Below are positions 14,019 through 56,612 of a stretch of DNA of 64,000 bases, piece by piece. Origin of the DNA: Candidatus Magasanikiibacteriota bacterium (GTDB lineage: Bacteria; Patescibacteriota; Patescibacteriia; Magasanikbacterales; GWA2-37-8); the NCBI GenBank assembly GCA_963802255.1, contig CAWDHY010000001.1, positions 107,274 to 171,273 of the forward strand. Reading direction: 5' to 3'. The notes beneath the pieces were generated by a model. That model ran no database searches. It had not been told where the DNA came from and was given only the letters and a program-made list of their open reading frames with translations. Position numbers and translations under genes: made by a program. Numbering within the stretch: position 1 is the first letter of the stretch; every line of letters begins with the position of its first letter.

Positions 14019-14207
14019 ATTGATACCATTATATCAAAATATTCGTTGTTTATAAATATTGACTAATTATTTGTATTTTTGTAATATATCTCCACAATAA
14101 TACTGCCAGAGATGTTATCTGGTAATGCGGGTATCATATATGGCAAAAAGCATATATGACACCCTCGTTCGGAAATGTAAAAACTTTGTTTTTCCATTTC
14201 GCTCGTT

Positions 14208-14320: not shown

Positions 14321-14486
14321 TAGTGAAGGGAGTCGAACGGGCAGAAGCGAGACGCGAAGTTTTTGCGGAAGCAAAAACAAGTTGGCGAGAGTCGTCGGAC
14401 TGCCAGTGGCAGTCCGACGCTGCCCAGGACAAGGAGACGAGACGGTTGCGGCCGGCGAGGCGACGAGGAACTCCCCTTACCGCTCA
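14321..14486 (+). repeat. family-A tRNA-appended structured element, copy 1 (candidate ncRNA or miniature mobile element)
   Basis: roughly 80-90% identical by eye to the reverse complement of 24536-24698; 5' end gggagtcgaac is the reverse complement of the tRNA-Gly(TCC) T-loop region; 3' end ctccccttaccgctca copies the tRNA 3' end; internal hairpins show compensatory changes between copies; flanked by terminators. Confidence 0.6.
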
Positions 14487-17110: not shown

Positions 17111-17138
17111 GTTGACACAAATACAGAGTAAATATCGC

Positions 17139-17360
17139 GCGGGTATGCTCAGGTATAGCCGCGTCGCTCGGAAACAATGAACGAGCTAGCTTATTCATTG
17201 TGTTCCTCACTCGCGGGTATACTCAGGTATATCCGCTCATTCGGAGAAAGTATACGAGTTTGCTCGTCTACTCTGCTCCTCATTTCGCGGGTATACTAAG
17301 GTATACCCACTCATTCGCGGAAAATGTCAAAATAAATTTTGCCACTTTGCCGCTCATTTC
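17139..17360 (+). repeat. three degenerate ~74-nt tandem pseudo-copies of the tRNA-Gly(GCC) 5' region
   Basis: gcgggtat(g/a)ct(c/a)aggtata recurs at 17139, 17213 and 17287 with a 74-nt period, each preceded by ctca(t)ttc as at the real tRNA; each unit begins with a hairpin gggtatac..gtataccc. Confidence 0.6.
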
Positions 17361-17482: not shown

Positions 17483-17555
17483 AGCGGGGTAGAGCAATTG
17501 GCAGCTCGTCGGGCTCATAACCCGAAGGTTCCCGGTTCAAGTCCGGGCCCCGCAA
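17483..17555 (+). tRNA. initiator tRNA-fMet (anticodon CAT) with an A1xA72 mismatch
   Basis: three consecutive G:C pairs 29-31:39-41 in the anticodon stem, loop CUCAUAA, unpaired 1:72, discriminator A; no encoded CCA. Confidence 0.8.
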
Positions 17556-17915
17556 CAAAGTTGCGAAGGGGCAGTAACCACTGCTCTTTTGTATTTGTGC
17601 CGCGCAGGGACGCTTTGCGTCCCGTAGGCGGCTAACCATGTTTTGCGTGAATCGGTTCAAGTCCGGGCCCCGCAACAAAGTTGCGAAGGGGCAGTAACCA
17701 CTGCTCTTTTGTATTTGTGCCGCGCAGGGACGCTTTGCGTCCCGTAGGCGGCTAACCATGTTTTGCGTGAATCGGTTCAAGTCCGGGCCCCGCAACAAAG
17801 TTGCGAAGGGGCAGTAACCACTGCTCTTTTGTATTTGTGCCGCGCAGGGACGCTTTGCGTCCCGTAGGCGGCTAACCATGTTTTGCGTGAATCGGTTCAA
17901 GTCCGGGCCCCGCAA
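17556..17915 (+). repeat. 3 x 120-nt tandem array; each unit is a 94-nt structured spacer plus a 26-28-nt copy of the tRNA-fMet T-loop/acceptor 3' end
   Basis: period 120 (ggttcaa at 17534, 17654, 17774, 17894); units virtually identical; internal hairpins gcagtaaccactgc and gggacgc-ttt-gcgtccc; the track ORF 17469..17918 is a translation of this repeat. Confidence 0.85.
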
Positions 17916-17958
17916 CAACTAAAAACATCTCCGCATAAGCGGAGATGTTTTTAGTTGT
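17911..17958. terminator. bidirectional terminator with a 22-bp perfect inverted repeat (caacaactaaaaacatctccgc / gcggagatgtttttagttgttg)
   Basis: long perfect stem with U-tracts on both strands; closes the tRNA array and the convergent perM-like gene. Confidence 0.6.
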
Positions 17959-17968
17959 TGCAATGAAA

Positions 17969-24497: not shown

Positions 24498-24535
24498 CAT
24501 AAAAAAATACCCCGAAGAAAGCGGGGATTTTTTTG
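24498..24535. terminator. hairpin ccccgaagaaagcgggg with U-tracts on both strands
   Basis: 5-bp GC stem with 7-nt loop; T-run on + strand, A-run on + strand (= T-run on minus strand). Confidence 0.5.
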
Positions 24536-24698
24536 TGGTCCGGGTGGGAATTACTCGTCGTCTCGCCGACCACAATCGGCTCGACTCCTTGCCCTGGGCA
24601 GCGACGGACTGCCACGGGCAGTCCGTCGACTCTCGCCAGCTCGTTTTTGCTTCCGAAAAAACTTCGCTTCTCGCTTCTGCCCGTTCGATTCCCTCGTC
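24536..24698 (-). repeat. family-A tRNA-appended structured element, copy 2 (downstream of tRNA-Leu-TAA)
   Basis: homologous to 14321-14486; 5' end (minus strand) gggaatcgaac is the reverse complement of the tRNA-Leu(TAA) T-loop region; 3' end attcccacccggaccac at 24536-24552 copies the tRNA 3' 17 nt. Confidence 0.6.
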
Positions 24699-38084: not shown

Positions 38085-38156
38085 GGCGACTACTGGGAAT
38101 TGAACCCAGGTATCTGGTGCCACAAACCGGTGTTCTACCATTGAACTATAGCCGCC
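38085..38156 (-). tRNA. tRNA-His (anticodon GTG) with encoded G-1
   Basis: extra 5' G opposite the discriminator C; anticodon loop UUGUGGC; T-loop TTCAATT. Confidence 0.85.
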
Positions 38157-38255
38157 ATGTAATCAAAAAAGGTGAAATGATTATATCAAACTTGTTATCT
38201 TAAAGCAATAATCATTGTGCGGCGCTCAGCGTCTCAATTACAACGCTTAGCGTTG

Positions 38256-42436: not shown

Positions 42437-42556
42437 AGGACGAGAACGCCGGAGCGATGTTTGACGAACTTGCAGGTGAGGCAAACCGCGAGGCGGTGAC
42501 TAGCCCGAGTAGGCGGAAGCCAACGAGAGGCGAGGTCGAGTCCTCTCCCCGGCACC
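42437..42556 (+). repeat. family-B tRNA-appended structured element, copy 1 (downstream of tRNA-Leu-TAG)
   Basis: shares cores acgccggagcgatgt and accgcgaggcggtg(a/g)ctag with the element at 56351-56506 (minus strand); 3' end ggtcgagtcctctccccggcacca at 42534-42556 copies the tRNA 3' end; 5' end aggac-gagaac resembles an inverted T-arm. Confidence 0.55.
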
Positions 42557-42710: not shown

Positions 42711-43268
42711 ATGCAAAAAGCATTATTTTTATTCATATTCGCCATGTTTGTCGGCTGTGGGGCATCTGACCGTTTTGAAGTGATTGATGGTGGTGGTAGT
42801 GATTCTGACTCGGATAACGACACCGACACAGACACCGACACAGACACCGACACAGACACAGACACCGACACAGACACCGACACAGACACCGACACCGAGA
42901 CGGAGACTGAGGCTGATGCTGGCCCTCAGACGTGTGAAACGGCTTCTGACTGCGATGAAGACGAGGTCTGTGGTTATGAAACGCAAACTTGCTATCTGCA
43001 GCCAGAGCCCGGTGCGGACCAGTATTGGTACTGCTGGGATGATGGTCCGGACAGCGAAGGCCCTAGCTGTGACTCCTTTGATTTCGGCGGTTGCGATTAT
43101 TGGTCGCCAGAGGAGTGGCATTGGACCGATGTCCATCCCGCTTGCGGCTCTAACTATCCGCCGCCAGCTTGCCCGACGCATTATCCGACCACTCCAGCCT
43201 GTTGCCTCAAAAACAACGGTGAGGATGAGGACTGCATCGGCCAGGCCTTTTTTCCCCCTATTGTATAG
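42711..43268 (+). CDS. acidic Cys-rich lipoprotein with a (DT)12-(ET)2 repeat; GC-rich and compositionally atypical
   Basis: SD AAGGAG 6 nt upstream of ATG 42711 (the track start is 42675); lipobox FVGC|G; 18 Cys; local GC well above the window background. Confidence 0.55.
   Translation: MQKALFLFIFAMFVGCGASDRFEVIDGGGSDSDSDNDTDTDTDTDTDTDTDTDTDTDTDTDTETETEADAGPQTCETASDCDEDEVCGYETQTCYLQPEPGADQYWYCWDDGPDSEGPSCDSFDFGGCDYWSPEEWHWTDVHPACGSNYPPPACPTHYPTTPACCLKNNGEDEDCIGQAFFPPIV
42819..42902 (+). repeat. hexanucleotide simple-sequence repeat (GACACN)n encoding (DT)12
   Basis: gacaccgacaca... tract inside the lipoprotein gene. Confidence 0.9.
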
Positions 43269-56176: not shown

Positions 56177-56248
56177 GCCCCTATAGTTTAATGGATAGAA
56201 TATCAGGCTTCGAACCTGAAGATGGGAGTTCAATCCTCTCTGGGGGCA
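56177..56248 (+). tRNA. tRNA-Arg (anticodon TCG)
   Basis: cloverleaf; anticodon loop CUUCGAA; T-loop TTCAATC. Confidence 0.8.
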
Positions 56249-56249
56249 C

Positions 56250-56281
56250 AAAAAAATAAGGGTCATGCCTTATTTTTTTTG
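56250..56281. terminator. bidirectional terminator (aaaaaataagg-gtcatg-ccttatttttt)
   Basis: palindromic hairpin with A-tracts and T-tracts. Confidence 0.5.
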
Positions 56282-56350
56282 CATCTTTAATTATTTGGTC
56301 GCTTCGCCCCAACAAAACAAAAAAGCCCCCAAAGGGGTTCTTTTGTTTTT

Positions 56351-56506
56351 GTGGGTCGCCAGGGATTCGGCTTCAACTAAAATTTTCTTCCAAAAATTTT
56401 GTCTAGCCACCGCCTCGCGGTCGCGCTCGCTCTTTTGCATCGCGCGACATCGCTCCGGCGTCCGAATCCCTGTCGCGACCAAAACTGTTTGGTCGCTTCG
56501 CCCAAA
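56351..56506 (-). repeat. family-B tRNA-appended structured element, copy 2 (downstream of tRNA-Lys-CTT)
   Basis: minus-strand 3' end ccgaatccctggcgacccac (56351-56370) copies the tRNA-Lys 3' 20 nt exactly; 5' end cagggattcggac is an inverted copy of the Lys T-arm; family-B core motifs; the box tttggtcgcttcgccc plus a terminator module is duplicated at 56294-56345 and 56488-56537. Confidence 0.55.
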
Positions 56507-56539
56507 CAAAAAAATCCCTGACGGGACTTTTTTGTTTTG

Positions 56540-56612
56540 TGGGTCGCCAGGGATTCGGACCCTGGACCTTGTCCTTAAGAGGGACCTGCTCTACCAACTG
56601 AGCTAGCGACCC
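56540..56612 (-). tRNA. tRNA-Lys (anticodon CTT)
   Basis: cloverleaf; anticodon loop CUCUUAA; T-loop TCCGAAT; acceptor GGGTCGC/GCGACCC. Confidence 0.85.

Follow-up and report, generated by a model that had tools for sequence, protein, structure and literature searches.

The question raised by this locus is why the 3' end of a transfer RNA (tRNA) gene, a terminator and a short sequence box are each found twice, in the same order, downstream of tRNA-Lys(CTT) in a Candidatus Magasanikiibacteriota genome (assembly GCA_963802255.1, contig CAWDHY010000001.1). The window is the whole stretch of DNA that was analysed, 64,000 nucleotides (nt) of this contig, and coordinates refer to it unless a locus of another genome is named. 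The segment 56351-56503, read on the minus strand, is one 153-nt structured element and not a free-standing terminator module. It belongs to a family of apparently undescribed small structured RNA elements that is spread across Patescibacteria, beside tRNA and transfer-messenger RNA (tmRNA) genes. The module appears doubled because every element ends in a copy of the tRNA end, often with a terminator of its own, and because a local partial tandem duplication is added to this at tRNA-Lys.

The repeated segments and the element at tRNA-Lys(CTT)

The 20-mer at the tRNA-Lys 3' end (GTGGGTCGCCAGGGATTCGG on the plus strand) has exactly two occurrences in the window (56351-56370 and 56539-56558), and none of 100 shuffles contained any match to it, even with two mismatches permitted. 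The 16-nt box TTTGGTCGCTTCGCCC also has two exact occurrences, at 56294-56309 and 56488-56503, with a spacing of 194 nt. Both repetitions had been reported in the first-pass annotation of the locus, and are confirmed by these exact copies. Two direct repeats span the modules (D1, 51 nt at 78% identity; D3, 32 nt at 88%), and the modules are homologous beyond the 20-nt tRNA end. The terminator hairpins (on the plus strand, AGCCCC-CAAA-GGGGTT and ATCCC-TGAC-GGGAC) have unlike stems and similar A and T tracts; as had been noted, they share a shape (A-tract, GC stem, U-tract) and differ in stem sequence. The GC-rich body between the two modules opens with a 13-nt reverse complement of the tRNA-Lys T-arm: the exact inverted copy announced by the annotation (cagggattcggac) was found at 56460-56472. 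Assignment of this body to family B was likewise upheld, its core being common to the copy that follows tRNA-Leu(TAG) at 42444-42536.

The segments of the locus are as follows, read from tRNA-Lys towards the convergent tRNA-Arg(TCG). H1 denotes a hairpin, antiT the antisense copy of the T-arm, and L155 the corresponding locus of a relative.

56539-56612, minus: tRNA-Lys(CTT) (ARAGORN; Rfam tRNA, 63.1 bits)
56504-56538, minus: terminator 1, with an A-tract, a GTCCC-gtca-GGGAT stem-loop and a U-tract, directly 3' of the tRNA (I4; hairpin fold)
56497-56503, minus: 5' end of the element, GGGCGAA, a weak complement of the tRNA 3' terminus (family comparison; fold)
56475-56496, minus: hairpin H1, GCGACCAAA-cagt-TTTGGTCGC (folds; covariation over 104 copies)
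56460-56472, minus: antiT, CAGGGATTCGGAC, the exact reverse complement of tRNA nt 53-65 (I3, I5)
56371-56459, minus: family-B core, 89 nt (covariance model R1; alignments A4 and A5)
56351-56370, minus: 3' arm, CCGAATCCCTGGCGACCCAC, a direct copy of tRNA nt 55/56-74 (exact 20-nt repeat; fold)
56311-56350, minus: terminator 2, with an A-tract, an ACCCC-tttg-GGGGC stem-loop and a U-tract (I2; homologous to the tRNA-proximal terminator of L155)
56294-56310, minus: box 2, GGGGCGAAGCGACCAAA, the remnant of a second unit, from the element 5' end through the H1 5' strand
56250-56281, plus: hairpin and T-tract of tRNA-Arg(TCG) (inverted repeat I7), a neighbour lying outside the element
56177-56249, plus: tRNA-Arg(TCG), convergent (ARAGORN)

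The weak match of the GGGCGAA segment to the tRNA terminus is that of TGGG to CCCA, its complement, and GGGCGAA is also the first half of the box, the second half of which is the 5' strand of H1. The 3' strand of H1 doubles as acceptor complement; other family members have an acceptor complement of 7-12 nt at about 38 nt upstream of the core. H1 is identical in L155, has an identical stem in L008, and differs by one compensatory change in L090. The core contains helices P1 and P2, hairpin Pa, triplet helix P4 and hairpin Pb (in an AT-rich variant), with invariant blocks GCCGGAGCGATG at 56448-56459 and CCGCGAGGCGGTG at 56398-56410. The 3' arm is predicted to pair with antiT and with the 3' strand of H1. 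Folded alone, the element reaches -75.1 kcal/mol (z = -7.3), and its minimum-free-energy fold is the family consensus. Membership in family B is based on the core score with model R1 (82.9 bits, E = 1e-13, E-values being rough after a shortened calibration), on an antiT exact at 13 of 13 positions and on a 3' arm exact at 20 of 20. Homology of box 2 to the element stops after the H1 5' strand. Both terminator hairpins have the form of an intrinsic bidirectional terminator (A-tract, GC stem of 4-5 base pairs (bp), U-tract); a strict terminator scanner called terminator 2 only, on the plus strand.

This anatomy changes the interpretation that had been given to the repeats. A dedicated module of box, terminator and tRNA end was not retained, the tRNA-end copy being the 3' arm that is found in every element of the family. 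In the same way, the swapped terminator stem is nothing special to this pair, since the GC stem is unlike in every lineage compared (both window copies, L155, and L001/L003); as the A and U tracts persist while the stem varies, this points to fast turnover of the terminator stem and not to a designed feature. The proposal of a conserved structural module with free stem sequence is supported in part: the two copies are homologous, and the box is the element's own 5' end, as follows from the family layout (acceptor complement, then H1 5' strand).

We also considered whether the doubling could be an isolated local event at the 3' flank of this tRNA, or an artefact of assembly, without wider meaning. 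Short-read contigs from close relatives (L152, L153 and L154) end inside or just past tRNA-Lys, so the region is hard to assemble, and the repeats at tRNA-Lys probably break assemblies. Against this, the same architecture is found in more than 100 independent genomes or metagenomes and at two loci of the window. The window copies of the module differ by substitutions and indels, a pattern which is not that of collapse, and the independent assemblies L155 and L090 carry the element at tRNA-Lys with the same architecture. An artefact, which the first-pass annotation had named as a possible objection, is therefore unlikely, and the explanation as a whole is in effect already refuted by the spread of the family and by L155 and L090; we give it next to no weight.

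As to the surroundings, tRNA-Arg(TCG) does converge on the same spacer, as had been stated, and is followed there by its own hairpin. Genes in the tRNA-Lys neighbourhood are rnc, nusB and rpmF, and the GC content of the window is 41.5%. The T-loop of tRNA-Lys(CTT), TCCGAAT, has a C at the near-universal U55, as in L001, L003, L004 and L155. Such a C55 is present in 17 of 233 tRNAs of the fetched loci, with or without elements; wherever a C55 tRNA has a B element, the antisense arm carries the matching G.

Spread, architecture and covariation of family B

Family-B elements were searched with the pattern CCGGAGCGATG-N15-45-CGCGAGGCGGTG, the blocks of which are those conserved between the two B copies of the window (Lys and Leu-TAG), using one genome per species. 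At least 118 matching stretches were obtained. A same-strand tRNA was present within 350 nt upstream in 99 of these at least 118 matches, mostly at 28-110 nt. Apart from two chance ones, the matches listed are all from Patescibacteria, or from metagenome-assembled genomes that are unnamed or mislabelled and have the same features. Lineages among the matches listed include Magasanik-, Sacchari-, Uhr-, Kuenen-, Komeili-, Yanofsky-, Morani-, Ryan-, Kaiser- and Taylorbacteria, and Paceibacterota; the neighbouring genes, again among the matches listed, represent about 20 tRNA identities, with tmRNA as the upstream gene of one copy. In 86 of the 99 loci the 3' end of the tRNA is repeated exactly, in direct orientation, over at least 10 nt; this copy mostly begins 37-41 nt past the second block and takes in CCA where the tRNA gene encodes it. 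In 60 of the 99 the T-arm is repeated exactly, in inverted orientation, over at least 8 nt, and that copy nearly always ends one base before the first block. Elements measure about 130-190 nt, and some copies lie inside tRNA operons without a terminator (L050, L017, L041). The second B element of the window is the following.

42437-42555, plus: family-B element after tRNA-Leu(TAG) (R1, 81.5 bits)

The 3' arm of this Leu-TAG element is one base off its tRNA (CCCCGGC for CTCCGGC) and equals the Watson-Crick-paired version in L046. At about 400 nt downstream of it, repeats with a 12-nt period (GACACCGACACA...) occupy 42795-42922 on the plus strand; if in a reading frame, these would encode an Asp/Thr-rich low-complexity stretch.

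The layout of the family was drawn from inspection of many loci and from a 104-sequence alignment. Its 5' part consists of an optional terminator, a segment complementary to the 3' strand of the acceptor (in many copies to the discriminator and C74 as well), H1 (a stem of 7-9 bp with a tetraloop, free in sequence yet covarying) and antiT, which is complementary to nt 53 to about 65. The 5' arm as a whole is thus a reverse complement of tRNA nt 53 to about 73/74, broken by H1. The core then follows in the order P1 (CGCC/GGCG), internal loop (GGA/GA), P2 (GCG/CGC), Pa, GUG, P4, Pb and CG, and the 3' arm covers tRNA nt 56/57 to 74 or runs through CCA.

Compensatory changes were observed in 24 of the 32 pairs of the RNAalifold structure. 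In a cleaner core alignment, with a structure specified by us, paired cells amounted to 90.9% (76.8% in shuffles) and double-sided changes to 327 cells (96 in shuffles); none of 500 shuffles equalled the observed values for pairing or double changes, and all slid controls were low. Helix P4, for example, alternates between GCU/AGC, CCC/GGG, GCC/GGC and GUC/GAC. In the variable helices G-U combinations number 27 and A-C combinations 4 (p = 3e-5). An excess of G-U is expected of an RNA having the sequence of the tRNA-sense strand, and not of its complement or of a strand-neutral DNA palindrome. Since the helices covary strongly and G-U far outnumbers A-C, the element would act as an RNA on the tRNA strand, and the alignments indicate that the family is under RNA-level selection on that strand.

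Several other identities were tried and rejected. With Rfam 15 (cmscan, gathering thresholds), no match to the element was obtained in the 64-kb window; relaxed searches of 56250-56545 (E up to 10) and of five further loci (E up to 1) returned weak hits at chance level, none of them over the core. A hidden tRNA or pseudo-tRNA in the body was excluded by the lack of a tRNA-clan match on either strand. A protein-coding origin does not fit either: the conserved ATG frame stops after 15 codons in the window copy, copy lengths differ by 8 or 9 nt, substitutions follow base-pair covariation, and there is no conserved open reading frame (ORF). The core sequence is off the register of the K-turn consensus (resemblance to K-turns and T-boxes being judged by eye only). 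A simple model of a retroviral-type primer-binding site was dropped, as the antisense arm stops at nt 73/74 in the inspected loci, without a complement of CCA. A group I intron of a Patescibacteria tRNA gene would interrupt the tRNA in its anticodon loop, with a core of about 200 nt or more, and the tRNA would go undetected before splicing; here the core is of 89 nt, the upstream tRNA is intact and no Rfam intron match was found, and this identity was rejected as well. In a limited literature search, no description of these elements was found, and the only tRNA-linked feature of Patescibacteria encountered was that of group I introns, at tRNA position 35/36 (PMC13011429).

The direct repeats bring in a further explanation, namely that the tRNA-end copies are the attL and attR sites of a tiny non-autonomous element, a scar or miniature moved in trans by a recombinase targeting T-loops. 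In a variant of it, a folded single strand would integrate, its arms rebuilding the duplex of the tRNA gene 3' segment, as do the integron attC site and CTX phage. The repeat does span the T-loop to the tRNA 3' end, usually stopping at nt 74, and Williams is said to have described in 2002 a block from T-loop to 3' end as the classic identity block of tRNA-targeting integrases; tmRNA is likewise a target, tandem arrays occur, and the arms fold into a duplex that mimics the 3' segment of the tRNA gene. Much else disagrees with it. The 168 nt between the repeats hold spurious ORFs only, with no integrase or other ORF in or adjoining the element, and the core pattern had 0 matches in the 2.9 million viral contigs of IMG/VR, a result which also led us to reject a phage or plasmid origin. 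The right junction lacks the half of a symmetric core site that holds the T-stem 5' strand and T54-T55: what stands before the 3' arm, which begins at nt 56-58, is the core end CG[A/C][G/A]NNN[C/A]G, with no T-stem 5' strand. One core family would moreover need a different attP for each of about 20 tRNAs, integration at a new tRNA would make a hybrid, non-functional tRNA, and covariation with tolerance of G-U indicates selection at the RNA level. Integrase-mediated origin is thus regarded as very unlikely.

A long target-site duplication as a signature of insertion was rejected on similar data. The repeat is confined to the tRNA end in 72 of 79 loci (about 90%), and extends to the terminator and the 5' part of the element in 7 of 79 loci, window tRNA-Lys included, to which L074 is added by inspection. 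As this long duplication reaches into the element itself, it is taken as a secondary tandem duplication.

The relation of the arms to the neighbouring tRNA was then compared position by position. The last 4 nt of antiT track the T-loop of the tRNA in 86 of 88 loci: antiT ends in GAAC at 81 of the 83 TTC-loop loci and in GGAC at 5 of the 5 TCC-loop loci, window tRNA-Lys being one of the latter. In 3 of these 5 TCC-loop loci, nt 55 is absent from the element's 3' arm. Where 3' arm and tRNA disagree, antiT follows the tRNA in 35 cases and the arm in one. For acceptor G-U pairs, the 5' segment is the Watson-Crick complement of the 3' strand in 4 cases, a copy of the tRNA 5' strand in 2 and neither in 1 (small numbers); an origin from a whole tRNA, with the 5' segment as a copy of the tRNA 5' strand, was set aside on this balance of 4 to 2, itself a small sample. 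The homology of the tRNA to the 3' arm normally ends at nt 74, and CCA is encoded by the element at the correct place in 9 of 53 loci whose tRNA gene lacks it. Taken together, these comparisons show the 5' arm to be an antisense image of the tRNA 3' region that is kept faithful to the real tRNA, and the element to end in a shape like that of a tRNA 3' end.

A rival explanation takes each element for a host-functional non-coding RNA dedicated to the tRNA beside it. Pairing of the antisense arm with the acceptor 3' strand and T-arm of that tRNA, or with the tRNA gene, would control folding, 3' processing, read-through transcripts or stability; alternatively, the tRNA-like closing helix with NCCA would be a decoy or titrator for an acceptor-stem enzyme or a toxin. 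The conserved core would bind a common protein. The lasting match of antiT to the real tRNA and the strong conservation of the core make this a serious rival. It is in line with core blocks invariant over distant Patescibacteria, strongly covarying helices, an antiT that sides with the tRNA 35:1 despite arm decay and tracks nt 55, outside the 3' arm, an over-representation of CCA at the element 3' end, retention at the same tRNA in different species, and copies placed within tRNA operons with no terminator before them (L050, L017, L041). It agrees less well with the patchy distribution among close relatives (a stump only in L001, none in L006 and L004), with shortened or decayed copies, tandem arrays and several unrelated cores having the same arms, with two different cores behind identical 5' modules, or with the terminator that often separates element and tRNA. 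At one tRNA-Ala locus the G3-U70 pair is lost in the element, so that this copy is not an aminoacylation mimic. All considered, a host function is possible and, in our judgement, rather doubtful.

The same matching could also be that of a programmable RNA device acting on the cognate tRNA or its gene, with an antisense guide that spans T-loop nt 56/57. The core of about 90 nt would then be a small ribozyme or a ribonucleoprotein scaffold, and the 3' arm a substitute 3' exon (nt 57-76, in which CCA is encoded more frequently than it is by the tRNA gene), which would repair or replace damaged tRNA 3' ends, or home into T-loops by the reverse reaction. A device would explain why the guide is matched to the real tRNA and not to the element's own 3' arm, why unrelated cores follow the same arm logic, and why the outer junctions are fixed (the antisense arm ending at the nt 53 complement and the 3' arm starting at nt 56-58). 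It is put forward as a speculation that would be remarkable if true, and is very unlikely.

Partial duplication, loss and exchange of elements

The history of the doubled module was approached through related tRNA-Lys loci. L155, a closer relative than L090 (its RNase III is 87% identical to that of the window), has in order tRNA-Lys, a terminator, one full B element, the 3' arm, one terminator and the convergent tRNA-Arg, and the second box is absent from it. In L001 (RNase III also 87%), just the tRNA, a terminator and a 12-nt remnant of the box are found at tRNA-Lys, a state for which recombination between the repeats would also account. L003 has kept the box, H1 and part of antiT before a rearrangement, and no element was present at tRNA-Lys in L006 and L004. 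In L090 (tRNA-Lys with the same acceptor), two copies are 100% identical for 70 nt past the tRNA end and the repeat stops inside H1. Partial second units are found in parallel in L090, L018, L125, L043, L051, L117 and L074. The distal module of the window (terminator 2 and box 2) has its best alignment with the tRNA-proximal module of L155.

The simplest history for the duplicated module has three steps. An ancestral tRNA-Lys would have had a single element; unequal exchange between the two tRNA-end repeats would have produced a tandem unit; and an internal deletion would have reduced the second unit to a stump of 18 nt. The GC stems of the two terminators would have diverged since the duplication.

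Exchange between copies is also suggested by hairpin Pb. The window Lys element has the AT-rich variant, which is shared in related genomes by elements beside Ser, Pro, Leu, Ala and Gln tRNAs, and the L155 copy at tRNA-Lys has the GC-rich one; the two variants at the same tRNA point to mosaic exchange. At L003 (3716-3930), tRNA-Arg(TCG) and its promoter are inverted relative to the window, with a breakpoint inside the antisense T-arm copy of a shortened element (between ...GGTCGCGACAGGGATT and aatcttg...).

Elements are not restricted to family B. They follow 5 of the 11 tRNAs of the window (Gly-TCC, Leu-TAA, Leu-TAG, Lys-CTT and Met-CAT). The four bodies of families A and B open with an inverted copy of the T-arm and close with a direct copy of the tRNA 3' end, and Met-type units open with a complement of the acceptor 3' strand and close with the tRNA 3' end. 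The loci concerned, with one tmRNA locus of another genome, are listed below.

14323-14485, plus: family-A element after tRNA-Gly(TCC) (sequence comparison)
24535-24697, minus: family-A element after tRNA-Leu(TAA) (sequence comparison)
17483-17961, plus: tRNA-Met(CAT) and three tandem units of 120 nt each, 100% identical (sequence)
L070 620-1040: tmRNA and two elements, the first with an unclassified core and the second with a family-B core

The two A cores of the window are 88-89% identical, compensatory changes included, and each element opens at the 5' side with an antisense T-arm copy, closes at the 3' side with a copy of the end of the tRNA it follows, and has its own terminator. The family-A pattern was found at 26 metagenome loci built in the same way, beside Trp, Gln, Gly, Leu, Glu, His, Arg and Ser tRNAs. 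The Met units have a different core family and no terminator between them; they start with the acceptor 3'-strand complement (GTTGCGaaGGGGC) and end with the last 23 nt of the tRNA, and after them stands a perfect 23-bp palindromic terminator that includes the tRNA-end bases GCAAC. Family-A and Met-type elements were not detected by model R1, and families A and B as distant relatives were rejected on that ground.

Among the 247 tRNAs in all fetched loci (a sample biased to element-bearing loci), 118 have downstream a direct copy of at least 12 nt of their own 3' end. Neither core A nor an exact match to the B block is present in 29 of those 118, which include diverged B copies, further core types and a few adjoining similar tRNAs. 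Mixed tandems occur (A then B in L133; another type then A in L141). The two L070 elements have identical 5' modules (GGAGATG, H1, GGAGGAATCGAA) and unlike cores, which is evidence of modular core exchange; a duplicated 3' fragment of the first core is found there after the second element. What unites the superfamily is that two arms derived from the tRNA enclose a structured core.

Other tRNA-linked repeats were observed in the window. Upstream of tRNA-Gly(GCC), at 17137-17360 on the plus strand, there are three 74-nt repeats, in each of which the tRNA 5' end is copied (GCGGGTATAC) and the inverted complement comes next, the two forming a hairpin; a similar single unit precedes tRNA-Gly(TCC) (14108-14207, plus). 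These look like a 5'-side counterpart of the 3'-side elements. A mini-module after window tRNA-Arg(TCT) (38156-38254, minus) and after tRNA-Lys of L004 (10856-10900) is made of two hairpins with GCTGAGC/GCTAAGC loops (aacgctgagcgtt ... gggacgctgagcgtCCCAC). In L004 the second of these hairpins restores the final bases of the tRNA 3' end, and the mini-module may follow the arm logic of the elements in miniature.

Considering these data together, we think it probable that the element is a recombination-prone satellite RNA of tRNA genes, selfish or semi-domesticated, which would be expressed with the tRNA and processed in the same manner as it. Its RNA would be made on the tRNA strand, by read-through or co-transcription, and the two tRNA-derived arms would form a long closing helix, giving a 3' end that resembles that of a tRNA. 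The direct and inverted repeats shared with the tRNA gene would drive unequal recombination and gene conversion, which would give tandem arrays, stumps, clean losses and core swaps, and would keep the arms matched to the tRNA.

Some points weigh against the satellite interpretation. When an element appears at a new tRNA, three interleaved segments specific to that tRNA have to be rewritten, and no enzyme or mechanism able to do so was identified. Within a single genome the copies have diverged (about 70-88% identity) and show no recent burst; a recent burst of transposition was accordingly rejected, window paralogues (about 70% identical in B, 88% in A) being no closer than orthologues elsewhere. 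The invariance of the core across distant lineages and retention at the same tRNA across species (Lys in the window, L155 and L090; Leu-TAG in the window and L046) fit a host function at least as well, though the search pattern was taken from the window, so that the two invariant blocks are partly fixed by sampling. Finally, antiT is kept complementary to the real tRNA as the 3' arm decays; this may reflect a functional contact between the element and that tRNA, or the tRNA gene, for which a purely selfish element would have no need.

Patescibacteria are a major and poorly understood part of bacterial diversity. If these findings hold, a large share of their tRNA genes (5 of 11 in the window) would be shadowed by structured RNAs of a class uncatalogued so far and outside Rfam 15, providing a natural conserved scaffold with locus-specific, guide-like segments matched to tRNAs. 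Duplicated tRNA ends, usually read as integrase scars, would have another explanation, and a practical cause would be given for assembly breaks and mis-annotation in these genomes. The elements would also offer a testable entry to tRNA biology and tRNA-linked genome dynamics in minimal-genome organisms.

Comparison with known systems

Integrative elements of tRNA and tmRNA genes (tyrosine-integrase islands, prophages, and non-autonomous cis-mobilizable elements, CIMEs) also insert 3' of an intact tRNA, are bounded by a direct copy of the tRNA 3' end from the T-loop, use tmRNA sites and form tandem arrays. Direct repeats such as those of attL and attR are present here as well (the exact 20-nt repeat in the window; at least 10 nt in 86 of 99 loci). 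The present elements differ from them in being of 130-190 nt, with no integrase or cargo and a covarying RNA core between the repeats; they have an extra inverted copy of the tRNA 3' region, no symmetric right core site, and one core family for about 20 different tRNAs.

Miniature inverted-repeat transposable elements (MITEs) and repetitive extragenic palindromic (REP) repeats (Correia/NEMIS, RUP, BOX, ERIC, REP and bacterial interspersed mosaic elements) are similarly small, non-coding and multi-copy, with inverted terminal arms giving a long RNA hairpin, a mosaic structure, tandem and shortened copies, and likely co-transcription with neighbouring genes. In MITEs the arms are constant terminal inverted repeats bound by a transposase, whereas here they are the local tRNA 3' sequence and unlike between copies. 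Contrary to MITE and REP repeats, the elements lie strictly 3' of tRNA or tmRNA genes, on the same strand, and their core is conserved across candidate phyla. No short target-site duplication was seen around the elements, which are flanked by the terminator tracts (U-tract of the first, A-tract of the second) or by unrelated sequence.

Guide RNAs (the internal guide sequence of group I introns, the exon- and intron-binding sequences of group II introns, the bridge RNA of IS110) also combine a structured core with a variable antisense segment that spans a fixed junction (here tRNA nt 56/57), and in both cases the sequence attached to the 3' side of the core is identical to the target downstream of that junction. 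The core of about 90 nt is much too small for a group I or group II intron, has no Rfam ribozyme match and is without a recombinase gene; as the upstream tRNA is intact, there is nothing to splice in the context of the element.

The closing helix also resembles the tRNA-like RNAs (the tRNA domain of tmRNA, YrlA, mascRNA and viral 3' structures), which also copy the acceptor and T-stem 3' strand and end at the discriminator plus C, or at CCA. Since the element lies within tRNA transcription units, the tRNA-processing enzymes would be an obvious route for its maturation. It differs from tRNA-like RNAs in having no D or anticodon arm and no Rfam tRNA-clan match, and its discriminator and C74 are often paired; because the 3' half of the T-loop is base-paired to the antisense strand, a T-arm and T-loop are absent as well. 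A further difference from these RNAs is that each copy mimics the very tRNA beside which it lies.

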